Assembly (NCBI GenBank): GCA_963810095.1
Contig: CAWEMM010000006.1
Coordinates: forward strand, 800,001 to 864,000
From: an uncultured Chloroflexia bacterium
GTDB lineage: Bacteria > Chloroflexota > Anaerolineae > CG2-30-64-16
DNA length: 64,000 bases
Direction of reading: 5' to 3'
In this document: positions 39,310 through 56,733 of the stretch, one piece after another
Numbering within the stretch: the stretch's first letter is position 1
How the letters are laid out: every line of letters starts with the position of its first letter
The notes under the pieces: model-generated
Seen by the model: the letters and a program-made list of their open reading frames with translations, nothing else
What the model was told of the DNA's origin: nothing
The model's database searches: none
Position numbers and translations under genes: made by a program

Positions 39310-39540
39310 GGGGGCACTACCTCCAAGATGCGGCAGACGTAAGGCCGAGGTCACCTCGCGCCTACAGCCGTATGATACCACAACGCCTCCGTCCCGGACG
39401 CGGTCAGGGAGAGACAGACTCGATAGCCGGCAAACGCGATCTGCGCTGCCCCCCGCCTTCCCTCAGTTCGCGCGATTCGCGGGGCCCCGCCCGAGGTGGT
39501 ATACTCTTCTCATCCTCGTATAACCGTTTGGGAGGTTTGC

Positions 39541-40807
39541 ATGACCGTAACCGCCGTCGTCGGCGCTCAATGGGGCGATGAAGGGAAGGGGCGGATCGTC
39601 GACTACCTGGCCCAGAACGCCCACATGGTGATTCGCTTCCAGGGCGGCGACAACGCCGGGCACACGGTTGTCAACGAGCACGGCACATTCCGCCTGCACC
39701 TGGTCCCCTCAGGCATCTTCAACCCTGCGACGGTTTGCATCGTCGGTTCCGGCACGGTCATTCATCCCCCGGCCTTGCTCGACGAGATGAGCGAACTGGT
39801 GGCCGCGGGCATCAGCCTCGATAACCTTTGGATTTCGGATCGCGCCCACGTGATTATGCCTTACCACCGTGTCCTCGACGGGCTCGAGGAGTCGGCACGG
39901 GGCGGCGCGCAGATCGGCACGACCAAGCGGGGCATCGGCCCGGCATACGCGGACAAGGCCGCCCGCAGCGGCATCCGCATGGGCGACCTGTGCCGGCCCG
40001 GCTACCTGGCCGACCGGCTCGCCCTCGCACTCCCGCGCGTCAACCGCACGGTCACGCAGCTCGGCAGCGAGGAATTCGACCTGTACGGGCTGGCACGGCA
40101 GGCGATGGGCTGGGGCAATGCGCTCGACGGGCGCATCGTGGACACTGGGCCCGTCGTGCAGGCCGCCTATCGTGCGGGCGAAGAAATCCTGCTCGAAGGC
40201 CAGCTGGGCGTGATGCGCGACCTCGACTGGGGCACCTACCCCTACGTCACCTCCTCGAATCCGATTGCCGGCGGCGGCTACGCAGGCGCCGGCCTCCCGC
40301 CGCAGGCCATCCAGCGCGTCGTCGGCGTGGTCAAGGCCTACTGCACCGCGGTCGGCGCAGGGCCCCTGCCCACCGAGCTGCACGACGAGGTGGCCGACCA
40401 CCTGCGCAGCGTGGGTGCGGAGTACGGCGCGACGACCGGCCGCCCGCGTCGCTGTGGCTGGCTGGACGGGGTAGCATTGCCCTATGCGGCGTGGCTGAAC
40501 GGCTTCACCGGCCTCGCGATCACCAAGCTCGACGTGCTGGATGGGCTGCCCGAGCTGAAGATCTGCACGGGCTACCGGATCGGCGACGACGTCGTCGACC
40601 GGATCCCCGACACTTACAACATGGCGCGTGCCGACCCGATCTACGAGAGCTGGCCGCGGCTGGCAAGAGTCGACGCGGCACGCCCGCCGCTGGGGCGAAC
40701 TGCCGCAAGCCGCCAAGGCCTACCTCGACCGCATCTCAGAGCTTGCCGGCACGCCCTTGCAGTACGTCTCCGTCGGCCCCGGCAGGGACCAGTTGATCGT
40801 CTTGTAG
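39541..40807 (+). CDS. purA: Adenylosuccinate synthetase, frameshifted near 40655
   Basis: Motifs [39 protein letters not shown]; the C-terminus [13 protein letters not shown] is in the shifted frame. Confidence 0.95.
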
Positions 40808-40909
40808 AGCGAGAAGGTCGCAAACACAAAGGCACCGGAGGACCGAAGCTTCACAAGAGTCCTTGTGCATCTTTGGTTCTTCGGTTCTTTTGTGTTAGGA
40901 GAGGGCAAC

Positions 40910-42315
40910 GTGAGCGACTCTTCCTATTCTTACGACACCTATCTGTCCCCGTTCACCTGGCGGTACGGCTCGACGGAGATGCGGGCGCTGTGGAGCGAGC
41001 TGCACCGGCGCAGGCTGTGGCGCACGATCTGGGTCGCGCTGGCCCAGCGCGGAGCAGGCCGCGGGCCTGACCACCCCCGAGCAGGTCGCCGACCTGGCGG
41101 CGCACGCCGAAGAGATCGACCTGGCCGCGCGCGCTGGAGATCGAGGCCGAGATCCATCACGACCTGATGGCCGAGGTGCGCACCTTTGCCGAGCAGTGTC
41201 CGATTGGCGGCGGGGTCATCCACCTGGGCGCCACCTCGATGGACATCGAGGACAACGCCGAGGCGCTGCGCGTCCGCGACGCGCTCGACATCCTCCTCGG
41301 CAAGCTCAGGGCGCTGCTGGCCGCTTTCGCCGGCCAGATCGAGGAGTGGGCCGGTGTCCCGGCGATGGCCTTCACCCACCTCCAGCCCGCCGAGCCGACG
41401 ACGGTGGGCTACCGGCTGGCGCAGTACGGCCAGGACCTGCTGACCGACTACCTCGACCTGGGCCGCGTGCGTGCGGCCGTGCGGGGCAAGGGCCTCAAGG
41501 GCGCGGTCGGCACGTCCGCGTCGTACCTCCAATTGCTCCAGGGCACCGGGATGACGCCGGCAGAACTCGAGGACCGCGTCATGGACACCCTCGGGTTGCC
41601 CGCATATCCGGTCGCCACCCAGGTCTATCCGCGCAAGCAGGACTACACAGTCCTCGCCGCCCTCGCCGGGCTGGCCCAGTCGCTCTACAAGTTCGCGTTC
41701 GACCTGCGTTTCCTGCAGACGCCTCCCATCGGCGAATGGGCCGAGCCGTTTGGCCGCAGCCAGGTCGGTTCGAGCGCCATGCCCTTCAAGCGCAACCCGA
41801 TCCATGCGGAGAACATGGACAGCCTCGCCCGGCTGCTCGCCGGCCTGCCGCGGGTCGCCTGGGACAACGCCGCGCACAACCTGCTCGAGCGCACGCTGGA
41901 CGATTCGGCCAACCGCCGGACGATCCTCCCCGAAGGGTTCCTGATCGCGGACGAGCTGCTGATGCGGGCCACCCGCATTGTCACGGGCCTGCGCTTCGAC
42001 GGGCAGGCCCGCGAACGGCTGCTGGCCGCGTACGGGCCCTTTGCGGCCACAGAGCGGCTGCTGATGGAGCTGGCGCGGCGCGGCGCCGACCGGCAGGCCA
42101 TGCACGAGCTGATTCGCGAGCACTCGATGGCGGCCTGGGCGGCCGTCCAGGCCGGCGGAGCCAACCCATTGGTCGGGGCCCTGTGCGCCGACCCGCGGCT
42201 GGCGGAGTATGCGGACCGGGAGCAGCTGGCGGCGTGGCTGGACGCAACCGACTACCTGGGGGATGCGCCCACCCGGGCGCTGGAGATGGCCGCGACGCTG
42301 CGTCGCACGGTGTAG
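40910..42315 (+). CDS. purB: Adenylosuccinate lyase, frameshifts near 41045-41130
   Basis: Motifs [40 protein letters not shown]. Confidence 0.93.
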
Positions 42316-43053: not shown

Positions 43054-43786
43054 TTAGGCGGTCCTGCGGCGGGAGATCATCACGCCGACGACGACGCCCA
43101 GCGCCACCACGCCGAGGCCCGCATAGAGCGGCCAGGCGGTGCGGGTGGCGGAGGCGGAGCTCATGTCGACGGCGTTGGGCTTGGTGCCACTGATTGTGAG
43201 CACGGGACGGAACGCCGGGTTCGCGGTGTACTCTTGGCTGTAGAAGTTTACCTGGCTCGTAGTCGAGCAATTAGCACTGAAGCTCATTGCCAGGGTGACC
43301 ACGTTGTCGCCATCGGCCTGCAGCTGAACATAGTTCTTCAGACCCGCGTCCGCGCCGCCCCAAGTCAAGGGAGTGCCCGCGGTGGTGCTGCTGGCGATGA
43401 CCTTGCTTTCAATCACCGTCGCGCCAGCCGTAGTAGGGGCATTAGTTGCATTGAGCGTGGCAGGATCGAAATCAGCGACGCCATACAGAGTCAGGGTCGG
43501 ATTATTGGCAAGGCCGTTAAGCGTCGCACCATGGGTGAGTGCGAGCGAAGCAGAATTGACCGTGCCAAAGGTGGATGCGTCGAACTGGAAATAGCCGATC
43601 CACGTGTCGTTGCATGTCCCCGTCGAATCGGCGACTACCACTTGCTGCACCGTCGGGTTATTGCTCCCTCCGCTACCGAGAATGACATAAGTATCATAGT
43701 AAGGGCCGGTGAAAGCCGCGGATGCCACTTCCAACACCGACTGCAAACAGCACAAATACCAGGAACAGGTACGAGAAATGCTTCAT
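43054..43786 (-). CDS. Secreted beta-rich protein with a C-terminal TM anchor (DNRLRE/CBM96-like), frameshifted in the signal region
   Basis: AGGAG RBS, then MKHFSYLFLVFVLFAVG; YFQFDAS, FYSQE..RPVLTI; tail PNAVDMSSASA, a TM helix and SRRRTA. Confidence 0.65.
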
Positions 43787-43815: not shown

Positions 43816-44517
43816 TCAGGGCCAAGTAGTTGGCGCACCGGTTGCGAGGCAGGCGACGTACGGATATCCGATTTTCACCGGGAAATTGGTGCCGCTTCCA
43901 CCAAATTCGTCGACAGTCCAGATATCAAACAACTGAAGCGTAGCGTCCCAGTGCAGGACCTGAGTGGCGCTCAACGCCGTTGCCAGCTGCGTCGCGTTGG
44001 TGATCGTGGACTGGTCCAGCGGGAGCGAGAATTCGTTGAACTTGCACGAGGCCGCCGTAACGAAGGTGAAGTGAGTGCTTCCCTGTGCGGGGACATCGCC
44101 AACAAACGAAACCACTGCCGGGGCCGTCAAGTCGAGGAGCAGCCGATCCGCGCCCCCAACGGCTAGCGGGAACTTGGTCCCCGATCCGCCAAACTCGTCA
44201 ATCGTCCAGATCTGGTAAACCTGGTTCACATTGTCCCACGCCAACGCTTGACGCACGCTGCTGCCGACCAGCTTGGCAAGCCCATCTGCATCAAAGGACA
44301 GGCCCGCAGTGGTGAACTGATTGGCAGAATTGAGAGGCATCGCAATCATGTTGAAGTTCGGTCCGGCCGTCGGCGCATCCGGGTGATACTCCGGCGCGGC
44401 GGCCGATACAGGCGCCCCAGCCAGCGGCGCGTTAGCATTGGGCAACGCCAACACGGCAAGTGCACCCAGCCCGAGGAGCAGGGCCACGGCGAGGACAGTC
44501 GTGAGAACTCGTCTCAT
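43816..44517 (-). CDS. Secreted protein with two internal repeats
   Basis: Signal peptide; repeats N-x-(I/F)-(A/S)-(M/L)PL...WD...IWT(I/V)DEFGGSGT(K/N)FP. Confidence 0.75.
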   Translation of the reverse strand: MRRVLTTVLAVALLLGLGALAVLALPNANAPLAGAPVSAAAPEYHPDAPTAGPNFNMIAMPLNSANQFTTAGLSFDADGLAKLVGSSVRQALAWDNVNQVYQIWTIDEFGGSGTKFPLAVGGADRLLLDLTAPAVVSFVGDVPAQGSTHFTFVTAASCKFNEFSLPLDQSTITNATQLATALSATQVLHWDATLQLFDIWTVDEFGGSGTNFPVKIGYPYVACLATGAPTTWP

Positions 44518-44651: not shown

Positions 44652-47600
44652 CTACGGGAAACTACGCAAGCGATTTGGCATCAGGGGCAGGCCGACGACG
44701 GTGAGACGGTCCCGCGCCTGCCCCAAACGCCTTAAGGCGCGCCCGGGAACAAGGGTGAAGTCGAATTCCGCCTCCTCCCGCGAGTCGAGCGAGCGTCCGC
44801 CTGCGCCGTTGACCGCTACCACCTTGTAGAAATGGTTCACTGCCGGGTCGCCCACCACGCCCTTGTCGATGTACACACTGCGATCCCCGCCGAAGTCGGA
44901 CGGGTGGACCTCGGACACGAGCGTCATGCTCGCGCCCGCACCCGTCGTGCCGTACGGCGTCTCGCTGCGCCACAATTCGTACCGGTTCGGAAACTCGTAG
45001 CCGTCGGACACGTCACGGATGATCGCCGCCCAATTCACGTTCAGATCGACCGTGTTGGTGATGACGGAGAAGGGCAGCGGCACCTCCGGCTGGTCGGCTT
45101 TGCTGGGCGCCACCAGGACGAGACCCGACTGGGGCGGTACGTCAGCGGTAATCTGGCACACGACGAACGTGTCCGGGTTGCATTGGGTCGTGAACGTGTT
45201 GCCGGTCACGACGTCCATCCACACTTCGTCCTGGAATGAGAGGTAAGGCGCCTTCTCCAGGTTTTGGAACACGATCGTGTGCGTCACCGCATCGCGATTC
45301 AGCGCGATCAGCTGCGGACTTCTGCTCGGCCTCCAGCGTTCGCGCGTAGGCATAGAGCTTGTCGGCGTCCGAGATGACGAGGCCGTGCTGCACGTCGCCA
45401 TACTGCAGCGCCGGGTAACCCTGCCGGGCACTGGTGAGGCTGCGCAGGAAGGGCAACGTGCCGGTGTAGGGCGTGTACGAGCCGGGGGTGTCGTCCCAGG
45501 GGAACGGCGTCCGGTTGTAAGGATCGTCCTGCCACGTCGCGTTGGTGCTGTCCCAGACGCCATCCGCCTGCACCTGCATCTCGTCCCCGTAATAGAGCGT
45601 CGGTGCGCCGGCGTAGGTCAGGTTGAAGAGCCAGTACTCCTTCATGCGCTGCAGCGCCGCCGCATCGTCGTCATTGTTGATCTTCTTCAGGAGGAAACGC
45701 AGGCGGTTTGTGTCGTGCGAGTCGCCCATATTCATCATGGCCTTGAACGCTGCCGGCGGGTAGTCCTCCTGGATCGAGCGCAGGCGGGCGTTGAGCTGGG
45801 AAGGCGTCAACGCGCTGATGGGGCCCGACGCGCTGTTCGCGTTGTCGTCGTTATCCTGGAAACTGGTGCCGCCCGTGCAGCCATCACCCGAGCATCCCGT
45901 GAAGAGCCAGCCGAGCGCGGCCGAGCGCAGGCGGTAGTTCATCGCACTGTCCCACTCGTTGCCAAGCAGCCAGGGCGACGCGTCGCCCCACTCCTCGCCC
46001 AGAACGAGGGGCACCGTGCGAGTCTGCACGCTCGTATCCTTGACCGCAGCACGGAAGCCTTCCCAGTAGGTATTTGGCTGCGCCGGGTCCTCCTGCGTCA
46101 GTCCTGGATCGATGTCGCCGGCCACGTCGAGCCGCCACCCGGAGGCACCTTGCTGCACCCAGTAAGGTCCGATGGATGGCTGCACACCCGTGCCACCGAT
46201 TCCCTTCGCGTACACGAGGTCACGCACGCCCTGGTTCGCGGAATCCAGCTTAGGCAGCGAGCCATAACCGTACCAGGCCGTGTACGTCTGCGTCCATGCC
46301 CCGCCGCGGTCGTCCGTGTCCGTGGGGTCGCAGCGGTCGTCGGCCCCCGAAGCGGGAGAGCCGCCATCCGGGATGAAGAACCACGCCCGGCGCGGCGAGT
46401 TCGGGCTCTCGCAGGCCTGAATGTTGTCGTCCAGGCCGGGACCGGTATTGCTGACCAGTTGGTCCTTGAAGTTGTACCGGCTGTAGCGATCGAAGTACGC
46501 GCTGTCCGACGACGTGTGGTTGAACACGCCATCGAGGATGATGCTGATGCCCTTGGCCGCCGCCGCGGCCTTGAGGTTTTGCCAGGCGGTCGAACCGCCA
46601 AATTCTTGGTCGATGCTGCGGTAGTTCGCCGTGTCGTACTTGTGATTCGACGGCGACGAAAAGATCGGGTTGATGTAGATGGCGCTCACCCCGAGGTTGT
46701 TGAAATAACCGTCGTTGATCTTCTGTGCGATGCCGGCCAGGTCGCCGCCGTAGAGGTTCTCGCCGAACTTGTTCTGACAAGGCCCCGTGCTGCGGGGGTC
46801 GCACAGGGTCGTGTTCCAGGTCATCGTGAACGAACGATAGATGGTGCCGCCGGGCTGATTATAGTAGAAGCGCGACTTGACCGCGTTGTTCACCGATTGG
46901 CCGTCGCGGAACCGGTCGGGGAAGATTTGGTAAACAATGCCCTTCTGCATCCAGTCGGGCGTGGTGAAGTTCTGGTCATAAACCGTGAGTTGATAAGAGT
47001 TGGCCTCGGCGTTGGCCTGGTTATCGTCAGGGGTGCCGTAGCCTCCGCCGTAGAACTTCGGGTCATCGTCCCGATAGAAGACCGTCTTCGTGCCGTCGAT
47101 CAGGCGGAAGGTGTAGTACAGAATCGTGGGGTCGGCCGGCACGGGCAGGTCGTAGGTCCAGAAAGTTACTTCGCCGTGCACCGGGTCGACCAGCTCGGGG
47201 CCGGCAACCATATCGTAGAGCAACTCGGTGTTCGTGCGATCGTCCCAGACCCGCAGCTTGGCGGCGGTAAGGTCGCCCCGGCAGGCGCGTACCCGCAAGG
47301 ACAGCGTCCCCGGCGCATTGCTCACGGCTCCAAGCGGACTGCGGTAGTCGGTGCTGAACGAGTCATGGAGCAGGGCCGACCAGAAGATGTTGTTGTCGGG
47401 CTTGGCGCCCAGGCAGTCGCCCGAGGTCGGTTGGTTGACGGTCAGCTTGATGTTGCCGCTGGACATCGTCGCCCAGTATTTCACGGGCGGCGATTCAGTG
47501 ACGTCAGTGCAGTAGGCCGTGAACTCGTACAGGCCCGAGAGCGGGGAGACCGTGGCGGTGAAACGGTCGCTGTTGCCAACGTCCTCTGACCACGTCATGG

Positions 47601-47946
47601 GCGTGTCGAAGGGGGTGGGCTGCCAGGCGCCGCCAAAGCTCGCAACCTTCGACCAGTACAGGTGGCATTCGATCTCATAGCTGTCGCCTGGGATCACATC
47701 GGTGGTGCCGGCCTTGTAGGCGTCGACCGTCACGGTGAAGGACTGGCCCGAGTTAATGGCGTTGCTCGATCCGCTGGCCGGAATCAGGTTGCCGACCGTG
47801 TTGATGGTTTGCGGGCTGGTAGGTGCCGTTGGGGCCGCGGCGAGTGCTGCGGGCACACAGACCACCGCGGCAACTAGCAGCGATGCCAAAATCGCGTGGC
47901 GGGCGCGACGGAACGCGCTGCGCGGGGTTCGTCGTTGGGTCATCAT
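44652..47946 (-). CDS. Secreted GH13 alpha-amylase/amylopullulanase-like enzyme with a C-terminal Fn3-like domain, frameshifted near 45310
   Basis: Signal peptide; motifs YQIFPDRF, GGDLAGI, NHKYDT, DGVFNH, WRLDVA, GEEW, SHDT, YYGDE; C-terminus YELWRSETPY...NHFYKVVAV...EFDFTLVPG. The true stop may be near 44733. Confidence 0.88.
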
Positions 47947-47983: not shown

Positions 47984-48240
47984 ACAATCAGGCCGACACG
48001 CCGCAGATGTGCCGGCCTAGCGATGCGGGGACATGGTTGCGCAAGGTCGCGACAGACCGTTCGCGCACGCGGATGCCTTCACCGCGAAGGCCCCGCACTC
48101 GGTCAACAAGCTGCGACGGGGACTGGCAACGCAGCATGCCTCAGTCGGGGTCGAGCCGCCTTGGTCCATCCGGGCTGTCCGCCCCACCTGCAACAGCGGC
48201 GGTCGCATACGCGCCCGCCGGCCGCAGATGGCTGGAACTG

Positions 48241-48369
48241 CTACTTGTTCGTGCCGGCCGGATCAAGCGGATCAGGAATGCTCAACGGTGAACCGGCGCG
48301 TACCTCCAATGCCGACTCGTAGACCACTGCCGGCTCCTCGTATGGCTTGCGTTCCTGCTTCTGCTCCAT
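48241..48369 (-). CDS. Putative RiPP precursor peptide (42 aa; below the ORF-track cutoff)
   Basis: AGGAGG RBS, then MEQKQERKPYEEPAVVYESALEVRAGSPLSIPDPLDPAGTNK*. YxxP leader motif; immediately downstream of the PqqD gene. Confidence 0.8.
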   Translation of the reverse strand: MEQKQERKPYEEPAVVYESALEVRAGSPLSIPDPLDPAGTNK

Positions 48370-48471
48370 GATATCCTCCTAAAGATGTACCGCTACACAA
48401 CTACTGCGGAACTAGAGCGGCGCTGCGGCGATGTGGCATGGGATGGCAAGGGCATCACCGTGCGCCATGCG

Positions 48472-48744
48472 TCAAGAGTCAAAGGTCAGCAAACCCCGCC
48501 CGACCAGGTCTCGGCAGAAAGCCAGGGTGTCTGATTCGGCCTTGACCGAGCTGACCTCGTACTCTGCGGCGATCACGCGGGTTATATCGCCGATAGTGTG
48601 TTGTCCGTCGGCAAGCTCCCAGATGCGGGCGCCCACCCCGTTCAACACAGTCACCTTCTTCTGCTCCGCGTGAACCAGGACAGCCTCGCCGTCGAGCGTT
48701 CGACTCGCGACTCCCGACATGCGGCGTGGAACAACGTCTAGCAC
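48472..48744 (-). CDS. PqqD-family protein / stand-alone RiPP recognition element
   Basis: 90 aa with LDGEAVL...LNGVGARIWELADG...IAAEYEV...FCRDL..RGLL, the typical PqqD pattern. Confidence 0.9.
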   Translation of the reverse strand: MLDVVPRRMSGVASRTLDGEAVLVHAEQKKVTVLNGVGARIWELADGQHTIGDITRVIAAEYEVSSVKAESDTLAFCRDLVGRGLLTFDS

Positions 48745-49611
48745 GGCGCCTCTTGAGCAATGACGTCCCAGAAGGCGTCATCCTTCCGAAAGTGCAGCCG
48801 CCGCACGCCGACTGCGCCGGCAATGTCGCGGCAGCGCTCCATCAGGACCGGCAGCAGATCCGGGTGGTCGTTCACCACCGGCGCGTTCGCGAGCAACTCG
48901 GCCGCGCCGGCTAGGCCCGGCATCGGCTCGAGAAATACCTCCCGATCCTGGATCAGTTTGTAAATCCCGGTGACCAAGCCGCTCTCGGCCTCACCTTCGC
49001 GGTCCATGGTGTCAAAATTCCAGAAGGGTGTGCCGTAGGCGCACCAACCGCGTGCGCTGCGGCGCAATAGGATCAGGTCATCACCGAGAGCCACAGCTCG
49101 CTTTGCGGCCTGCGAGAGTGCCACAACAGTCGACTTACCGCTCCCGCTTTGGCCCACGAATAGGGCAACCCGTCGCCGCGTCATCCCTGGTGCAGGTTGG
49201 GTCAGTGCCGGTCGCACTCTCGCGCATGAGCGCCGCACAGTGAAGCAATAATCCATCGCGCCGCAGAGCAAAGAGGGCCAACGCGATGCGCAGAAAGTAC
49301 TCTGCTTCCCGCGCGGGCTCGGCTGAGCGCATGCGCAACTCAGCCCGCCCCCGCAGTGCGTCAATCATACCATAGAACGTGGTGCCGTCAAGTAGGTAGT
49401 CTTCCCCCTTCTTTGTCAAAGACGCGTGCAAGATACTCTCGGACGTGCCCGGGGCGTTCGCCTCGGGCGCCTCGCCGTGTACGACGACGACAAAGTCGGT
49501 CGTCGCGGCGCGGGCACACGCAAAGCGGGCAAGACGCGGTGCGAGGCGGTCGACCAGCGCGGCCGGGCTTAGCTCCAGCTCGACACGCCAACGTGCCAAT
49601 TCTAAGAGCAT
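48738..49611 (-). CDS. HPr-kinase-related P-loop protein (ScmC-like), frameshifted near 49180
   Basis: Motifs LLLHCAAL, LFVGQSGSGKST, LGDD, YGTPF, LHFRKD..FW. Confidence 0.78.
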
Positions 49612-49644
49612 GATAGCATGCCCCGGGGTCTGCCGCAACCGTAC

Positions 49645-50076
49645 TTAACCGCTATCACCGCGCGCCTTTTGCAGGAGCCGGCCGCCTCGCAGCCAGATCA
49701 GCAGGACCAGCACGGCCAGGCCGCCCAGCAGCACCGCATGCTGCCACTGCAAGCCGCCCGCGCGCACGCTGATCGGGCCGAAGCGGTTGACGAGCCCGTT
49801 TCGCTCCACTTCCTGCAACTCGTAGTAATAAGTCACGCCGCCCTGCGCCGTCTTGTCCAGGAAAGTGTATTCCTTCCCGGTCAACGGATCGGCGGATGGG
49901 GGTATCAACTCGTCGTTGACCTTGGTCTCGAACGGCCCATCAGGCGAGGTGCCGCGGTACAGGTTGAAGCCAGCCGTGTTCATCTCGGTTTCGGTCTTCC
50001 ACGTCACGCGCACCGGCGCGCCGCATCCGGCCAGCAAAAAGGTAAGCAGTGTCAGCAGAAACAGACAATTCCGCAT
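49645..50076 (-). CDS. Lipoprotein with an Fn3/Ig-like module and a C-terminal TM helix
   Basis: Lipobox LAGC; VTWKTETEMNTAGFNLYR...YTFLD...TYYYELQEVE; hydrophobic then basic tail. Confidence 0.75.
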   Translation of the reverse strand: MRNCLFLLTLLTFLLAGCGAPVRVTWKTETEMNTAGFNLYRGTSPDGPFETKVNDELIPPSADPLTGKEYTFLDKTAQGGVTYYYELQEVERNGLVNRFGPISVRAGGLQWQHAVLLGGLAVLVLLIWLRGGRLLQKARGDSG

Positions 50077-50198
50077 GGCGCCTCGAAAGACGGATAATGA
50101 CGCGGCCGGCAAAGCGCTCCGGTAGGCGCTCGCCTGATCCCGCGGAACAATGACAAGCGGCGGCCTGGCCGGCGCGATACGCGTGGCAGCCCTGCCCC

Positions 50199-52052
50199 TC
50201 ATGGACACGCAATCCGTGCGTCTGCGCCGAGTGTCACCTGCGTACGGCACTCCCGGAAGCTGAACGTGAGGGGCCAGCCCGCAGTGCCCGCCTGCTTGCG
50301 CACATACAGCTTGTACGGCTCGGCCGGAACTCCGGCCGGCAGCCGGTAGCGGAGCGTAACCGTGTGCGCGGCGCCCGGCGCCAGGACAAAGTCGCCGCTG
50401 AATACTGTGGCGCCGCCCTCGCCCGGCTCTGTGGAGGGCGAGTTCAGCCCTTCGGCCGCCAACAACTCACTCCCCGCGGGTGCGAAAACGCGCACGTAGT
50501 CCCAGTAACAGCGGGCCGCGAGTTCCGCATAGTTGGGGCCATAGTCGAGGCTTCGTTCACATTTGGAGTCGGCCTTGGCGGGGGCGGTGTGCGTGTAAGT
50601 GATGGTGAGGGTCGCCTCCAGCCCGCCTGACAGCTCCTGCACCCGGTAGTCGAGCGCCTGCTGGACGAACATGTTGGCCTTGTCAAAGCCCACGTTGCTG
50701 TCGACGACGGACAGGAAGTCGCTGGCGGCAGGCACGCGCACGGCGCCGTCCCAGCCTTGACGGGCAAGCAGCGCGGCCAGCGTGGGATCGTCGACGGCCG
50801 CCTGGATGTGGCGGCCGTCGAGCGCGGCGTAAAGCGTGCGCGCCAGCCCGACCGTGTCGAGGTCGCCGCCGGCCTGGACTTTAGCCAGGGCGGCTTTGAC
50901 AAGCTCGCCCATGAAGTCCTTGCGCTTGGTCCACCAATCGCCGGCCGCGCCGGTCTCCAGGGCCGCACCGCCGGCAGGACTTTCCCAGGCGGCCTTCATC
51001 CAGCCCAGCGCGTTCTCGCCCGTCACGGGCTCGGCGATGCCCGGCACCTGCAGGGGGCCGACCGCGCCGACCAGTTGGCGCACGGCTTCGAGATCGAGCG
51101 CGATGGCGCCGTCCGTCTCGATGCCCCGATCTTGCGCGTAGAGGGCGCGTGCGACGTCGGCCGAGCTTGGGAAATCAGGAGACCAGTTCGAGTCGCGCAG
51201 TACCCACAGGTCTGCCGCCATGTACTTGCGCAGCGCAGCCGGGGGCTCGGGGTGCGGCTGTTCCCAGTTATCCACCGCGTAGCTGTCGGTGAGCACCAGG
51301 TCCGTGAGCTTGCCCCGGTCGAGGGTCACATGACCCGCACCGCTGATGAAGCCGCCGGTCGCCCGCAGCTCGTCGCTGTTCTGCGCCAGCAGCAGATAGG
51401 TGCGCGGCCCGCCTGCGCCCAGCAGCTCGGGCGCGGCCTCGACCAGCGCCAGGCCGTCCTGGGCGAGCGGGAGCAGCTTGTCCAGCTTCTCTACCTGGCT
51501 GATAAGCCGCGGCTCGGCAAGGGGCGGCAGCTCGGCCCGGAGTTCCGCCGCGTTCGCCAGCCGCGCCCGGGCCTCGGCTACTGCGGGCTGCGCGGCCTCC
51601 AGCGCCTCGACGGCCTTCGGCAGGGTGTCCAGCCCCCCACCGTCTGCGACCAGTTGGCCGACGGGCGCGAGGGCATCGGAGGCGAGCCGGGCGGCCGCGG
51701 CAAACTCGACCGCCAGCTCGACCAGCTTGGGTGCTGCCACCAGGTCGGGCCCGAAACGGGGGGCCCAGCCGAGCGCGGGCGCGATGCGCAGGAATGGCCG
51801 GCCCGCCGCTTGGGCTTCGACGAGATGCGTCTGCAAGCTGGCCAGGTCAGCCTGCGCCTGGGGTAGGGCCGCCGCGGAGGGGTCGGCAAGAAGGCCCTGC
51901 AGACGATCGAGATCGTCCAGCGCGGCCCGGGCATAGAGCGCCGTGCGTGCGGCGCGCCAACCCAGCCATGCCAGGAGAGCAATGGCCGAGATGATCAGCG
52001 CAAGCGCCAGCCAGCGATTCAAGCGGCTTGGTCGGGAAGCAGTTTCGGGCAT
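50199..52052 (-). CDS. DUF4012 domain membrane-anchored protein
   Basis: Motifs YLLLAQNSDELRATGGFI, RDSNWSPDFP, DGAIALD, N-GFDKAN; N-terminal TM helix. Confidence 0.85.
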   Translation of the reverse strand: MPETASRPSRLNRWLALALIISAIALLAWLGWRAARTALYARAALDDLDRLQGLLADPSAAALPQAQADLASLQTHLVEAQAAGRPFLRIAPALGWAPRFGPDLVAAPKLVELAVEFAAAARLASDALAPVGQLVADGGGLDTLPKAVEALEAAQPAVAEARARLANAAELRAELPPLAEPRLISQVEKLDKLLPLAQDGLALVEAAPELLGAGGPRTYLLLAQNSDELRATGGFISGAGHVTLDRGKLTDLVLTDSYAVDNWEQPHPEPPAALRKYMAADLWVLRDSNWSPDFPSSADVARALYAQDRGIETDGAIALDLEAVRQLVGAVGPLQVPGIAEPVTGENALGWMKAAWESPAGGAALETGAAGDWWTKRKDFMGELVKAALAKVQAGGDLDTVGLARTLYAALDGRHIQAAVDDPTLAALLARQGWDGAVRVPAASDFLSVVDSNVGFDKANMFVQQALDYRVQELSGGLEATLTITYTHTAPAKADSKCERSLDYGPNYAELAARCYWDYVRVFAPAGSELLAAEGLNSPSTEPGEGGATVFSGDFVLAPGAAHTVTLRYRLPAGVPAEPYKLYVRKQAGTAGWPLTFSFRECRTQVTLGADARIACP

Positions 52053-52057
52053 GCGTC

Positions 52058-53630
52058 CTATTGAGATGAGCCAAGTACGGGCGCCAGGACCCCGGACGGC
52101 GGAACCTTCGCGCCGAGCCGTAGGGGCAGGCCTACGTCCGCGGTAGCGTAGACCGGGCGCCGGGCAAGCCAGCCTGGAATCAGCTCTTCGAGGCCGGTGA
52201 CGTCGTCTCCCGATGGTAACAGATCGGGGTGCCTCTCGGCAAGCGAACGCCGGTACCAATCGAAACCGAAGAGACTGACGTTGACTACAGCCACATCGGG
52301 CCGCGCGTTCAGCCCGTACACTCCGTACCACAATGCAAAGGTCTCGCGGTCGGCGGCGGTGAGGACGACAGCGTTCGGCGCGGCGTCTTGGGCGCTGTTC
52401 GCCGTGGCCCGGGCCGCCAGGTCGTCCGCGGGGCTGTGCTGCTGCCACCGCCCCGCGATGGGGCCAACCACCAGCGCGGCGGCTGCGACGACGTGCGAGA
52501 GCGGCTGCCGGGCGGGGCTTGAGCGCTGCCAGGAGGCCGTCGAGTCCGGCGGCCAGCCACAGCGCCATAACGGCGAAGGCGGGAATCAGGTAAACGTCCG
52601 AGTCGGTCGAGTTGTACCCGATCGCGTAGATCGCGAACGCGGCCCAGATCAGCAGCGTGGTCAGCCACCACTGGGGCAGCCGCCGCTCGAGCCGCCACAG
52701 CCCGCCCAGCGCCACGACCAGGCCCCAGGGGAGGAATTGGCCCGCGGTTGTGGAGACCCAGCCGGCCAGCCGCGGGCAGCTCGGCCAGCGGCAGGCCGAA
52801 GACCAGCGGCGCGTAGAGCCTGCCGGTGACGACCCAGAGGAATCGATCCGGGGTCACCGGGTCGCCCCAGTTGATCGGCGGACGGCCCGACGCGGCGAGG
52901 GGCAGGTAGGCGTAGACCAGCAGCCCGGCCAACACCGCGAGCCCCGCCGCGCCCAGGTCGCGGGCCAGTCGCTTCCGCCCGCGGCCTTTCAGCCAGATCC
53001 ACGCGGCGAGCCCGGGCACCACGAGAGCGATCGTGATGTGGTTGCCAAGTCCAAGGCCGAGCGTTAGGCCGGCCAGCGCAAGCCAGTGCGCGGCCGGGCG
53101 GCCGGCGTCGACCGCTTCTCCCCACCGCCATGCCAACCACAACAGACAGACGCAGAGCAGCGCGTTGAGTGCATACACCTCGACGATGGTGGCCTGCCCC
53201 CAGACGAGGGGCGAGGCGGCCCACGCGAGCCCGCCGAGCAGCGCAGCAGCAGCCGCCGCGCCCGGTCGCGACCCTCCGGTCCGCCAGGGTCCGCCGGGCC
53301 AGGTCGACGAGCAGGGCCGACCGCCAGCGCCGCGCAGAGCGCGGACAACCAGGCCCCGGCCCGGGCGGGTTCGCCGCCGGCGAGCGCGACGAATGCTCGC
53401 AGAAGCAGCTCGTAGGTGGGGTAGCCGGTGGGATGCGGGACGCCGCCGGTCAACGCAGCTGCGAGCAGGTCACCGCCGTCGGCCCCGTTGTGCGCCCACG
53501 TCAAGCCGGGCGGCAACGTCGCGGCATACAGCGCGAGCGCAGGGCACCGCCCAGCATCGGAGCGAGGATTGCGGCGGTCCGCGGGCGGGTCACGCGCGGA
53601 CCGCGCCGGGTCGACCAGGGTTGGCTGCAC
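52058..53630 (-). CDS. DUF2723/TMEM260-like GT-C membrane glycosyltransferase, several frameshifts
   Basis: Motifs DGGDL...GVPHPTGYPTY, WGQATIVEVYALNAL, GLGNH, YAYLPL, INWGDP, DVYLIP, D..TFALWY. Confidence 0.78.
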
Positions 53631-53686
53631 GAACTGGCTACCTTATGGGAGGGATGCGCAGCCGCAACCGCTGCAACTGGCCACGC

Positions 53687-54374
53687 TTACCGCAGGCTCC
53701 CTCCAGTGGCAGGCAGCTGCGCCGGGGGCAGCCCAAGCGTAAGCGAGGCCGTCCGGGGCGGGCAGCCCGCCGCCGCTGCGCTCGCGCGGGCGCTGATGGC
53801 CTTCTCCGGACCCGTCGCCACAACGCGTGCGGAGTAGACCGCCTGCAGCCGGGCGCCTGGGTCGAGCGTGGGCGCGGACACGCGCAGAGTCCGGTCCTGC
53901 CACGTGCCGTTGCCGCTCAGGACGGCCACGGGCTCGAGGCCCGAGGCAAGCACATCTTCGAGCACGACGTCCCTGAACTGCTGCCGCGTCGTATTGGTCG
54001 AGCGTCGCGGTGAAGACGACGGTCGCGCCCGGCCACACGGCCTCACGGTCGGCGACCAGCTTCAGCGCCGATGCGGGCGGGCAGGCGGCGGACGTGGGCG
54101 CGGGCGCGGCGGGCGCAGGCGTGCTGCCGGGCACCGCAGGAACCTGGGTCGCCTGCGGACCTGAGGTGGGCGGCGCACCCGTGGGCGGCACGGCCGTATT
54201 GGCCGGCGGCTCGGTAGGCGAAATGGGCAGCGGTGTTGGCGTGCGGGTCGGAATCGTCTGCAACCATTCAGACTGACCGGGCGTCGCCCAGGCGGCCGGT
54301 GCCGCAAGCGCCGCGAGCAGTAGCACCGCACCTATGGCTCCATAGGCGAGAAAGCGCCATGTTCGTTTCATCAT
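53687..54374 (-). CDS. Secreted Pro/Thr-rich protein with a DUF11-like Ig domain ending in LPATG, frameshifted near 54000
   Basis: Signal peptide, PTRTPTP linker, PGATVVFTATL/TN..DVVLEDVL..GL, C-terminus QLPATGGSLR*. Confidence 0.72.
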
Positions 54375-54414
54375 GCCAACCTCCTGCCGGAACGCCGTGC
54401 ACGGCGCCCGGCCC

Positions 54415-55340
54415 TTACTTCTCCGGACGGGCAATCACCACCAGCCGGTGAGTGTTATTGGTCGGCGGCCAACAGGTAATGAGCGTGACCCGTTCGTCGC
54501 CCGTCGGCTGGATGTATTGCGCGTTGATTTCCCGCTGCTGCTGCGAGATGCCGGTGTCCTTCAGACGATAGAAATCGGTGATAACGTACTTATACTGCGT
54601 CCCCGAAGCGTCGATAGAGGAAGACTTCACGGCCGTCCAATGCGTCCGACTTGTCGGTGTAGTTGTCGACCTTCACCCGGCCATCGTTCTTCCAGGCCTG
54701 GCTGATCGGCATGAACACCTTCCCGTAGATGTTGTTGTGGCCCGAGATCACCAGGTTGCTCGCCTTGACCGATGCCCGCGCTGTTGAGGTGGTGGCCGGC
54801 GACGTTCTTGGGAATCACCCATTGCGAGACCGGCCCCGAGTTCGTCTGGACCACCTCCCAACCCATCTCCACCACGGGGGTGTCGATCTTCAGGTCGGGA
54901 ATGCTCAGCCGGACAGGAAGCACGGGCGCCGGCGCCGCCGTCGGCGAGGCCGTGGCCGTCGCCGGGACAGACGTCGGTGTCCGAAGTGGAGCAGCCGTCG
55001 TTGCGCGGCGAGTTGCGGGCGCGGCCGGCGAGGGCGCGGGGCTTGCAGGCAAGGTCGCGCTCCGGGTCGAGGTTGGAGCCGGTTTGGCCGAGGCCAACTC
55101 CGCGGCCGGAGTGCCCGCCATGGGGGCGCCCCCTGCCACCCTAGTGCTTGCGGGAGCAGCCAGTTCCAGCGCCATGCGCGTCGCCCGCGCCGACGCGGCC
55201 GCCGAGCCTTGCTCCAATTCAGACCGCACCTGCGCGGCCTGCACCTCAGTCCAGGCGAAATACCCCGCCACGATCAGTATCAACAGCAGGCCGATCCCCA
55301 TCAGGACCGTGCCGACGTTCCGAGTGCCATTCCGTCCCAT
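54415..55340 (-). CDS. Sortase (frameshifts near 54640 and 54765)
   Basis: N-terminal TM helix; LSIPDLKID, AGHH, SGHNN (His), VTLITCWP (Cys), THR (Arg). Confidence 0.85.
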
Positions 55341-55500
55341 TAGCAGCCTCAACCCGGCGACCTCGCGGCCCGCCGGCAAGTCAAATACGCGAGAGCATTA
55401 TAGCTTAACGCCCGGGTGTTCCACAACGATACGCGCCCGTGGCGGCGCGGGGCAGTCGAACATTTGACGATAACCCGGGGATATTTGGGGATACGTTCTA

Positions 55501-55623: not shown

Positions 55624-56733
55624 ATGGCCAACAAGTACGAACTGCAGGCGGCACGCATCGAGACGGTGCTCGGCGCACACAAGGTGCCGGCGCGCGTGTG
55701 GCAGGCAAAGGTTACGCCCCGGTTCGTACGTTTCGACATCACGACGGCCGTCGGTACCCGCCTTACCAAGGTCAGCAACCTGGCGGAGGAACTCGCATTT
55801 TCGCTTGGCGTCCGCTCGGCCCGGGTCTACCGCGAGGGCGGCGTGCTCCACGTGGAGGTGCCGCGCGACTCCCCCAGGGCGGTAGACCTGGCCGAAATGT
55901 GCGGGACGCTGCCGGCGATGCCTCCGTACTGCGGCGTCCTGGGCATCGACGAAGGCGGCGCTCCGCTCCTGGTGCGGCTCGATAGCCCCGACGTAGCGCA
56001 CTTGCTTCTTGCCGGCACGACGGGCAGCGGCAAGACGGTTCTCCTGCGCACGCTGCTCGCCTCGCTCGCGATGCACAACCATCCCGGCATGCTGCAGTTG
56101 GCCCTGATCGACCCCAAAGGACGCGGTTTCGGGCCGCTGGGCGCCCTGCCCCACGTGTGGCGGGGCGGGGGCGTCGTCCAGGAACCCTCGGCCGCGGCCG
56201 ATCTCCTTGCCGCGCTCGTCGGCGAGATGGAGCGGCGGGATCGCGTCAATCGGAGCCTGCCGCGGATCATCGTCGCGATAGATGAGCTGGCCGACCTGCT
56301 GCAAAGCGGCGGGAAGAGCGTCGGGGAGTCCCTTCAACGGCTGACGCAGCGCGGGAGGGAGGCGGGCCTACACGTCGTCGCCGCGACGCAGCGGCCCGCA
56401 GCAACCCTGGTCGGCGGGCTGGTGAAGGCAAACTTCCCCGTTCGCCTCGTCGGCAGCGTCGTCAGCGCCGAGGACGCCAAGGTCGCGTCCGGCATCGGCG
56501 GCTCGAACGCCGAGCGGCTGCTGGGCCGCGGCGATTTCCTGCTCGTGGCGAAAGGACAGGTCATCCGCTTCCAGGCAGCCTACGCCGACGCCCGAGAACT
56601 GGCCGGCCTGGTAGCGCAGGTTCGGGCCGGCGGGCGCCGGCGCCGGGCGTGGCAGGCCCAGGCCTCGCGGCTAGCGTCGACTCCCCTACTGCCGGCCGGG
56701 AGCCAGAACGCAACGGGTTCGGGCGGCGGGTAG
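55624..56733 (+). CDS. FtsK/SpoIIIE-family ATPase (motor only; no TM or gamma domain)
   Basis: Motifs HLLLAGTTGSGKT, LIDPK, EMERR, IIVAIDE, RGREAGLHVVAATQRP, AERLLGRGDFL. Confidence 0.9.
   Translation: MANKYELQAARIETVLGAHKVPARVWQAKVTPRFVRFDITTAVGTRLTKVSNLAEELAFSLGVRSARVYREGGVLHVEVPRDSPRAVDLAEMCGTLPAMPPYCGVLGIDEGGAPLLVRLDSPDVAHLLLAGTTGSGKTVLLRTLLASLAMHNHPGMLQLALIDPKGRGFGPLGALPHVWRGGGVVQEPSAAADLLAALVGEMERRDRVNRSLPRIIVAIDELADLLQSGGKSVGESLQRLTQRGREAGLHVVAATQRPAATLVGGLVKANFPVRLVGSVVSAEDAKVASGIGGSNAERLLGRGDFLLVAKGQVIRFQAAYADARELAGLVAQVRAGGRRRRAWQAQASRLASTPLLPAGSQNATGSGGG

Follow-up and report, generated by a model that had tools for sequence, protein, structure and literature searches.

The sortase, glycosylation and peptide-modification genes that lie side by side in an uncultured Chloroflexia bacterium are probably separable envelope modules that were juxtaposed in one lineage, and not the parts of one pathway. 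The window analyzed here comprises 64,000 nucleotides of this genome (positions 800,001 to 864,000 of contig CAWEMM010000006.1, assembly GCA_963810095.1). It corresponds to G000:C6:800001-864000 in the numbering used below, where G, C, and L denote genomes, contigs, and loci. The assembly spans 6.1 Mb in 16 contigs, with 65% GC and a completeness of 88.5%. On the minus strand of the window, a run of eight co-oriented and tightly packed genes extends from 55340 to 48241. The run consists of a sortase, a DUF11 protein ending in LPATGG, a DUF2723/TMEM260-like GT-C glycosyltransferase, a DUF4012 membrane protein, a “hinge” lipoprotein, a kinase-like P-loop protein, a PqqD-family protein, and a 42-aa precursor-like peptide. 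Coordinates and Pfam matches confirm this order, which had been given in the original prediction. The last three genes, here called the trio, move independently of the sortase set.

Distribution of the two modules across genomes

The linkage of the two halves was followed at two levels. At the family level, the window proteins were mapped by tblastn on fetched flanks from 41 relatives, and the kinase-positive set includes the genome of the window. The wider survey covered 80 loci from the kinase alignment with one genome per species. The kinase occurs in 26/41 genomes (19/24 in family f1), and G023 and G031 show weak, paralogue-level matches only. The halves are adjacent in eight genomes, namely in G000, G001, G002, and G004-G007, which belong to one genus, and in G021. 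In G014, a distance of 7.7 kb separates them, and the three genes inserted there encode anchored secreted proteins. In eight further genomes with checked flanks (G013, G015, G017, G022, G024, G033, G035, and G036) the halves are apart, and in G024 they are separated by 295 kb on the same contig. Two genomes contain the kinase but no DUF4012 gene that was found with this query (G016, G028), and the contigs of five others are too short to judge the linkage (G009, G010, G018, G019, and G026). DUF4012 is present without the kinase in at least eight genomes (G008, G011, G012, G020, G025, G034, G038, and G039).

The species-level loci give the same picture. In 51 of them the upstream flank is 7 kb or longer, and of these, nine carry DUF4012, eight DUF2723, seven a sortase, and six the LPATG protein. 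Eight of the nine DUF4012-bearing loci are of the Anaerolineales type and take on the arrangement of the window, complete or interrupted. In the ninth (L115), the DUF4012 gene follows downstream of the kinase and is encoded on the other strand. A phylogenetic profile of the sortase against the trio was also considered and dropped, because Pfam Sortase is found in 38/41 genomes and its presence is therefore uninformative.

The original prediction treated the eight genes as a single system, an idea that was to be given up if the halves proved to be separate in relatives. Linkage is missing in 8/17 judgeable kinase-positive relatives and in 42/51 species-level loci, and the idea thus does not stand. 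In its full form, it describes one envelope pathway in which removal of the leader exposes a Gly-Ser N terminus, and the sortase ligates LPATG/LPxTG proteins onto the N terminus of the peptide. The adjacency and probable co-transcription in this genus, G021, and two further species (L071, L079) speak for it, as does an invariant Ala in the peptide that is followed by [GS]-[ST] and would leave a small N-terminal residue after cleavage. An unusual acceptor is also possible for the LPATGG protein, given that it has no membrane-retention tail. Besides the missing linkage, however, the sortase is near-universal in the class, is the only one of its genome, and has canonical substrates encoded elsewhere. 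The peptide carries no signal peptide and no exporter gene is visible among the genes nearby, Ser replaces Gly after the Ala in some species, and the same leader is found on a Cys-containing peptide with a radical S-adenosylmethionine (SAM) enzyme in phyla whose fetched 10-kb flanks yielded no sortase. Since the gene sets adjoin only in a few related Chloroflexota, nothing supports the peptide as a sortase acceptor, and the one-pathway reading is extremely improbable.

Frame breaks and integrity of the run

In the assembled window, the sortase, the LPATG protein, the DUF2723 protein, and the kinase-like gene are each broken over two to four reading frames. The sortase is split into three pieces (54627-55379, 54590-54751, and 54415-54630), the LPATG protein has one frameshift near 54000, the DUF2723 gene is spread over three to four frames, and the kinase gene has one frameshift at ~49176. 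With at least seven frame breaks inside 7 kb, the run could be decaying. The frameshifts would then be real, the genes would be pseudogenes, and nothing would be functional here. This is very improbable. A short-read contig of a near-identical strain does not contain the extra base at 49176. Its removal restores the kinase frame, which is then open over 299 codons. Related short-read contigs differ by indels in the DUF2723 gene at 53279, 53320, and 53576, and without the first two of these differences the frame stays open for 443 instead of 386 aa. These low-share DNA contigs were used for indel checks only. In the related locus L029, all eight genes are intact in one frame each, orthologues are intact in relatives, and the catalytic motifs of the sortase are intact in the window itself. 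Similar breaks also affect the housekeeping gene purA, the amylase gene, and genome G001, as is expected of a long-read assembly.

Based on the base absent at 49176, the single-nucleotide differences in DUF2723, and the intact genes of L029, the frame breaks are most likely assembly indels and not gene decay. Mid-gene frame changes occur throughout the window, including purA and the secreted amylase (39496-41070 and 44652-47946, respectively). The assembly thus appears to contain frequent single-nucleotide indels, and gene calls from it need frameshift-aware handling.

The surface-glycoprotein set

The original prediction ascribed a surface-protein and glycosylation character to the first four or five genes of the run, and the family and fold matches agree with this assignment. 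The sortase (54415-55340, minus strand, as are all genes of the run) consists of an N-terminal transmembrane (TM) helix, an Ala/Pro/Thr-rich stalk of ~100 aa, and a catalytic domain. Pfam Sortase (PF04203) matches the C-terminal piece in the window with an E of 2.5e-8 (34 bits) and the intact homologue L029:1432-2337 with an E of 1.2e-17 (64 bits, cut-off 26.6). Together, the three frame pieces contain the catalytic motifs with His, Cys, and Arg. The best NCBIfam class is class E (NF033747), which scores 36 bits and thus stays below its cut-off of 160, and its closest sequences in the PDB are 5go6/5go5 and 5utt. Class E sortases typically use LAxTG, whereas the motif here is LPATG. A single genomic match identifies this sortase as the only one of the genome, and three canonical proteins with LPxTG, TM helix, and basic tail are encoded elsewhere.

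The DUF11 protein (53687-54374) harbors a signal peptide or anchor, a Pro/Thr-rich linker, and a C-terminal LPATGG that is followed by four residues. Its Ig-like domain is matched by Pfam DUF11 on L029:2375-3064 (E 4.9e-13), and its end is conserved as LPP-x-E-LPxTG (window 53687-53730, L029:3020-3064, and nine other loci). Neither a hydrophobic segment nor a basic tail follows LPATGG. In 10/11 listed DUF11/LPxTG proteins from this context, the tail after LPxTG comprises 3 to 10 non-hydrophobic residues (34 aa in G017), and the end is therefore not a canonical sorting signal. It resembles an unusual sortase signal that lacks the membrane-retention tail. Long Pro/Thr/Ala-rich stalks are found in both the sortase and the DUF11 protein.

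The glycosyltransferase gene (52058-53630) encodes a PMT-like protein of the GT-C type. On the intact 513-aa homologue (L029:3198-4739), the TMEM260-like family (PF11028) is matched with an E of 4.2e-26 (92.3 bits, cut-off 24.2) and PMT_2 with an E of 1.2e-9. Two pieces in the window match the TMEM260-like family with E values of 1e-7 and 2e-6 (32 and 28 bits).

The DUF4012 gene (50199-52052) starts 5 nt past the DUF2723 stop. Its product matches PF13196 with an E of 1.1e-32 (113.9 bits, cut-off 28) and is built from an N-terminal TM helix, a helical stalk, a central domain resembling the LytR-CpsA-Psr (LCP) family, and a C-terminal β-sandwich. The AlphaFold2 (AF2) model of L029:4820-6631 has a pLDDT of 83. 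Its central domain aligns with LCP chains at Z 10 to 11.4 and a root-mean-square deviation of ~4.2 Å over 162 to 189 residues, and the top 16 structural matches all belong to the LCP family, including Actinomyces oris LcpA. Foldseek relates the model to LCP proteins with an E of 4.5e-4. A Pfam scan of the protein (E<=0.05) returned DUF4012 only and no LytR_cpsA_psr, and a PDB sequence search gave no match at E<=0.1. Three arginines are invariant (R208, R264, and R357) and may correspond to the catalytic Arg residues of LCP enzymes. The C-terminal β-sandwich aligns with chains of oligosaccharyltransferase subunits at Z ~9. DUF4012 is a single-copy orthologue in 32/41 relatives, and the DUF2723-DUF4012 pair is kept across the class, well beyond the family. 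The genome also has five canonical LCP genes.

The closest known counterpart of this set is the SrtA/GspA/LcpA system of A. oris, which likewise combines a class-E-like housekeeping sortase, an LPxTG surface protein, and an LCP-fold enzyme. Its LcpA (5v8c) is aligned by the DUF4012 model at Z 10.3, and 5utt, with the molecule name “Sortase,” is among the three PDB sequence matches of the sortase. In A. oris, LcpA glycosylates a protein that is anchored to the cell wall (PMC6381275). The set in the window differs in that DUF4012 lies outside Pfam LytR_cpsA_psr and exists besides the five canonical LCP genes, that a TMEM260-like GT-C enzyme is present, and that the LPATGG protein ends without a TM helix or a basic tail; its activities are also predicted. 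The second point of comparison is provided by the TMEM260/PMT O-mannosyltransferases. TMEM260 is reported to O-mannosylate Ig-like IPT domains. The protein here combines TMEM260-like and PMT_2 domains, and the Ig-like DUF11 protein with its Pro/Thr-rich linker is encoded next door. Unlike TMEM260, it is a bacterial protein of 513 aa with a predicted function only.

Considering that LcpA glycosylates an anchored protein and TMEM260 acts on Ig-like domains, it is reasonable to infer by analogy that the four upstream genes (module A/B) form a surface-glycoprotein assembly set. This set would have a housekeeping role. The GT-C enzyme would O-glycosylate the Pro/Thr-rich stalks or the Ig-like domain, and the LCP-fold DUF4012 protein would transfer a lipid-linked glycan. 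The single sortase would process the C-terminal LPATGG as well as the canonical LPxTG proteins whose genes lie elsewhere in the genome.

The kinase, PqqD, and peptide trio

The kinase-like gene (48738-49638) encodes a probable member of the ScmC family with an HprK/PEPCK fold. PF27840 (ScmC, Pfam 38.1) is precomputed on most of the 120 kinase homologues listed. In NCBIfam, the protein scores 30 bits against ScmC (TIGR04249), below the cut-off of 125, and 24 bits against HprK_rel_B. Hpr_kinase_C was not among the matches in a Pfam scan of intact homologues. The AF2 model has a pLDDT of 95, and its top Foldseek matches are PEPCK structures (E 5e-8, TM ~0.5, the latter being the structural similarity score). 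In 37 kinase sequences, H129, the GxSGxGKS/T P-loop (G144-T152), and D168-D169 are invariant. This order of His, P-loop, and Asp-Asp is the pattern of HprK/P, and together with the PEPCK/HprK-like fold it suggests that the kinase is probably active.

The start of the PqqD gene (48472-48744) overlaps the kinase stop by 7 nt. The product belongs to the PqqD family of RiPP recognition elements (RRE; RiPP, a peptide that is synthesized ribosomally and modified post-translationally) and matches PF05402 with an E of 3.4e-17 (63 bits, cut-off 23.4). The nearest NCBIfam families are ScmD with 42 to 50 bits (cut-off 100) and lasso PqqD with 41 to 45 bits (cut-off 80). PqqD is found downstream of the kinase in 44/64 loci.

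The peptide gene (48241-48369) is preceded by an AGGAGG ribosome-binding site. In an alignment of 19 species, the leader is conserved as KPYxxP ... LEVRA, with Y10, P13, E18, and A25 being invariant. A25 is always followed by [GS] and then by [ST], after which a variable, Pro/Asp/Gly-rich, and Cys-free tail follows. In five same-length comparisons, synonymous changes equal or exceed non-synonymous ones and third-position changes dominate (L067 and L068 carry an extra residue, are out of register, and were excluded). Conservation in at least 19 species and this substitution pattern argue that the peptide gene is real and under purifying selection. The cut assumed in the original prediction, which would expose Gly-Ser, fits the conserved A-[GS]-[ST] junction.

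Together with the fibronectin type III (FN3)-like lipoprotein, the trio (module C) would represent an arm of a widespread, RRE-dependent peptide-modification cassette. For its chemistry, we infer the following steps. PqqD would bind the KPYxxP leader, and the HprK-like kinase would phosphorylate a hydroxyl group, most plausibly that of the invariant Ser/Thr two residues past the invariant Ala. The leader may then be cut after this Ala, which is plausible as V/T/I at position -3 fits the -3/-1 rule of signal-peptidase-type enzymes. An RRE-guided phosphorylation is suggested by the analogy with HPr-kinase homologues that act on lasso precursors. Such homologues phosphorylate lasso precursors, and a nucleotidyltransferase subsequently adds a hexose to the phosphate (PMC8498205).

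With the paeninodin kinase PadeK and the pseudomycoidin kinase and nucleotidyltransferase, the trio shares the HPr-kinase homologue, the PqqD-type RRE, and the YxxP-type leader, and in the radical-SAM subtype described below NTP_transf_5 is found beside the kinase as in lasso tailoring. Unlike the substrates of the lasso kinases, the peptide lacks a conserved ring-forming Asp/Glu and the C-terminal Ser that those kinases use as their site. The YxxP leader, together with an Asp in position 8 of the core, had suggested a lasso peptide. This was rejected, as the lasso B2 protease PF13471 has no match in the genome (88.5% complete) and conservation across the peptide family does not extend to the acidic residue. 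The window showed no lasso cyclase, for which no separate family search was made.

The arrangement also resembles SynChlorMet (SCM; NCBIfam TIGR04248-04251), in which an HprK-like ScmC-family protein is directly followed by a PqqD-family protein. A radical SAM/SPASM enzyme (cf. ScmE/ScmF) joins this pair in relatives of the trio from other phyla. The scores are far below the cut-offs, however, with 30 versus 125 for ScmC, 50 versus 100 for ScmD, and 100 to 109 versus 400 for the radical SAM enzymes of the relatives. The subtype of the window furthermore differs from SCM by the absence of a radical SAM gene from the run, by the Cys-free peptide, and by its partners, namely PorU-like C25 peptidases and an FN3 lipoprotein. 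The terms “SynChlorMet” and “PF27840” did not turn up in any paper. A literature search for HPr kinase with PqqD and RiPP returned lasso work only, one for PqqD, C25, radical SAM, and nucleotidyltransferase returned nothing relevant, and one for DUF4012 with sortase gave a joint mention only.

Two subtypes can be differentiated among the 80 loci: 21 contain the peptide family and 19 the radical SAM enzyme, and none contains both. The radical SAM/SPASM subtype, whose 19 loci come mostly from records with Acidobacteriota in the title, usually follows the order NTP_transf_5, kinase, PqqD, radical SAM. In the single radical SAM locus that was read, a KPYxxP leader is found on a Cys-containing peptide after the radical SAM gene (L124:11966-12148). 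The lipoprotein/peptide subtype occurs in Chloroflexota, and none of its loci carries a radical SAM gene. A second cassette of PqqD, radical SAM/SPASM, and C25 genes is located at C10:104.5-109.2 kb of the window's genome, and an NTP_transf_5 gene with a weak kinase paralogue at C9:640-642 kb.

Flanking genes and C25 peptidases

Upstream, the run is bounded by a divergent FtsK-like ATPase gene (55624-56733, plus strand; named from its translation), which tblastn places at the same position in L021-L023, L027, L029, L039, and L046. Downstream of the peptide, two secreted proteins are encoded on the minus strand, s233a (43816-44517) and s233b (43054-43755), the latter with a C-terminal TM-RRR tail. 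By tblastn synteny, both follow the peptide in most family genomes, and the s233b homologue of G024 carries a CBM96 domain (E 2.6e-13 on L025:14501-15295). Between the peptide and s233a lies the frameshifted gene of a secreted amylase (44652-47946), which was read from sequence as GH13-type with an FN3-like C-terminal domain. The amylase gene is present at this place in G000, G004, G007, G019, and G021, and absent in G002, G005, G006, and G024.

The usual partners of module C are PorU-like C25 peptidases. Its genes typically occur in the order lipoprotein, kinase, PqqD, peptide, C25, sometimes an S24/S26 signal-peptidase-like gene, FN3 membrane protein, and second C25. A C25 peptidase is found in 10/16 loci of the lipoprotein/peptide type with at least 8 kb downstream. 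The best NCBIfam match of these proteins is PorU (NF033707) with 195 to 266 bits, below the cut-off of 420. In the genome of the window, the C25-FN3-C25 set is located beyond the window, on the other strand and ~29 kb from the trio (C6:878.4-883.7 kb; L136:10379-15744). In G005 of the same genus, the set (L062:13315-18903) directly follows the two secreted proteins behind the peptide. An inversion with one breakpoint just past s233b (~43.05 kb) possibly displaced the set here, or the contig may be misassembled. Further pairs of lipoprotein-like and C25 genes are present at C7:77.0-79.7 kb and C10:293-296.5 kb.

Secreted proteins beside kinase and C25 genes share a C-terminal “PNAxxL,” which is followed by a stretch of ~10 residues that frequently includes W-P, and then by a TM helix and RRR. 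Such tails were seen in the window (43054-43160), in L061, L065, and L089, and at C10:296131 of the same genome. They may serve as sorting signals for PorU-like C25 enzymes. In a strict search of the genome, 2/142 tails with a TM helix and basic residues match, and the pattern thus does not define a large regulon here. The likeness to PorU, the sortase of type IX secretion, consists in the best score of the C25 proteins and in the position of their genes beside proteins with C-terminal sorting-like tails; it is limited by the scores below the cut-off and by the location of the C25 genes outside the window. Type IX secretion is not known to occur in Chloroflexota.

In and beside clusters of kinase, PqqD, and C25 genes, genes for extracytoplasmic function-type sigma factors were observed (L084:10817-12139, L040:147-869, and L099:16477-17115). 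The one in L040 was confirmed by Pfam, those in L084 and L099 were read from translations, and L084 contains an anti-sigma-like gene. This hints at envelope-stress control of the distant kinase/PqqD/C25 clusters.

The original prediction favored a role in the cell envelope over an antibiotic pathway. Neighbors that encode anchored secreted proteins and extracytoplasmic peptidases add to this, and near the peptide module no transporter, immunity gene, or lasso/lanthipeptide enzyme was seen. The envelope role is accordingly plausible.

The C25 partners also allow for a different acceptor role of the peptide. The trio could be an arm of a Chloroflexota system for surface-protein sorting whose core consists of PorU-like C25 transpeptidases, along with FN3 proteins that have TM-RRR tails and an enzyme resembling signal peptidases. 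The matured and possibly phosphorylated peptide would be its amine acceptor or adaptor, and the C25 enzymes, in place of the sortase, would be the ligases that join cleaved surface proteins to it. In this genus, the same island might subsequently have taken up the sortase and the LPATGG protein. One hint comes from the lipoprotein, whose junction before the TM helix (..SVRAGG.., 49660-49720) resembles the leader-core junction of the peptide (..EVRAGS.., 48290-48310). A parallel Lys variant of this junction is present in both genes of L076. The likeness is drawn from very few independent lineages and could reflect a common protease site or chance. This sorting-arm reading is highly improbable, and a role of the peptide as the acceptor of any transpeptidase is very unlikely.

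The hinge lipoprotein and a possible tie between the modules

The lipoprotein (49645-50076) sits at the junction of the two halves. As read from its sequence, it possesses a lipobox, an FN3-like domain, a C-terminal TM helix, and a basic tail, and it matches no Pfam or NCBIfam family. Among the 69 loci whose upstream flank is 1.2 kb or longer, 23 have it directly upstream of the kinase, and it is absent from this position in G010 and G019. In family f1, the 15 lipoprotein copies form one clade (support 99/91), in which the gene stands beside DUF4012 alone or beside DUF4012 and the kinase. The tree is built from 92 columns and leaves many forks unresolved.

Several observations weigh against a mere juxtaposition of the modules. 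The lipoprotein stays with DUF4012 where the trio is elsewhere (G013, G015, G022, and G024), is also found beside DUF4012 in G031, which belongs to a different family and has no ScmC orthologue, and adjoins the kinase in most other Chloroflexota. The two modules are likely co-transcribed in this genus, given that the lipoprotein stop and the kinase start are only 6 nt apart and that no convincing terminator was found between the modules. The gaps within the run range from the 7-nt overlap of PqqD and kinase up to 122 nt. A promoter/terminator scan of the run gave two promoter-like and three terminator-like sites, compared with an average of 4.0 terminator-like sites in shuffles, and was dropped as an operon delimiter. 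No RNA source was listed for 48000-55500. The whole neighborhood is envelope-themed, with the sortase-like C25 enzymes included. Finally, outside the family the gene context was searched by tblastn at E 1e-4 with few queries, by which divergent sortases or DUF4012 proteins could be missed.

The lipoprotein is a single orthologous gene that neighbors one module or the other depending on the lineage, and the modules may therefore have a tie that is older or functional. The run would then be a surface-anchoring island, in which the lipoprotein is shared by the DUF4012/GT-C and the kinase/PqqD/C25 machineries, for example as substrate or scaffold, and in which the peptide is not necessarily a sortase acceptor. 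The stretch of 20 kb in G005, which holds all eight genes of the run, the two secreted proteins, and the C25-FN3-C25 set, fits this looser coupling. So does G036, where a PMT_2 GT-C gene and a C25 peptidase gene directly follow the kinase, PqqD, and radical SAM genes, and so do anchored secreted proteins (LTD, GEVED, and CBM96), which recur beside the trio. Each module persists alone in many genomes, however, envelope-gene neighbors are common in these genomes, and shared substrates are proposed from gene context only. The surveyed lineages are few and related, and because kin are not independent, the counts overstate the independence of the cases. Such a tie is unlikely, though it deserves more weight than a direct reaction between sortase and peptide, and the arrangement is better described as a lineage-specific juxtaposition of separable modules.

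Implications

With these results, the sortase and the RiPP-like peptide lose a link that was attractive but lacked support, and two testable leads remain. Both modules are worth a bench test because neither has a described function. DUF4012 is a widespread protein of monoderm bacteria whose function is undescribed. The LCP-type fold of its model and the TMEM260-like GT-C neighbor that is fixed across the class point to a role in protein or wall glycosylation similar to that of LcpA, and in this family the pair is found beside a sortase and an LPATGG protein. The function of the ScmC/PqqD pair is likewise undescribed. It spans several phyla and occurs here in a form that is free of radical SAM enzymes, has a Cys-free peptide, and is accompanied by PorU-like C25 peptidases.

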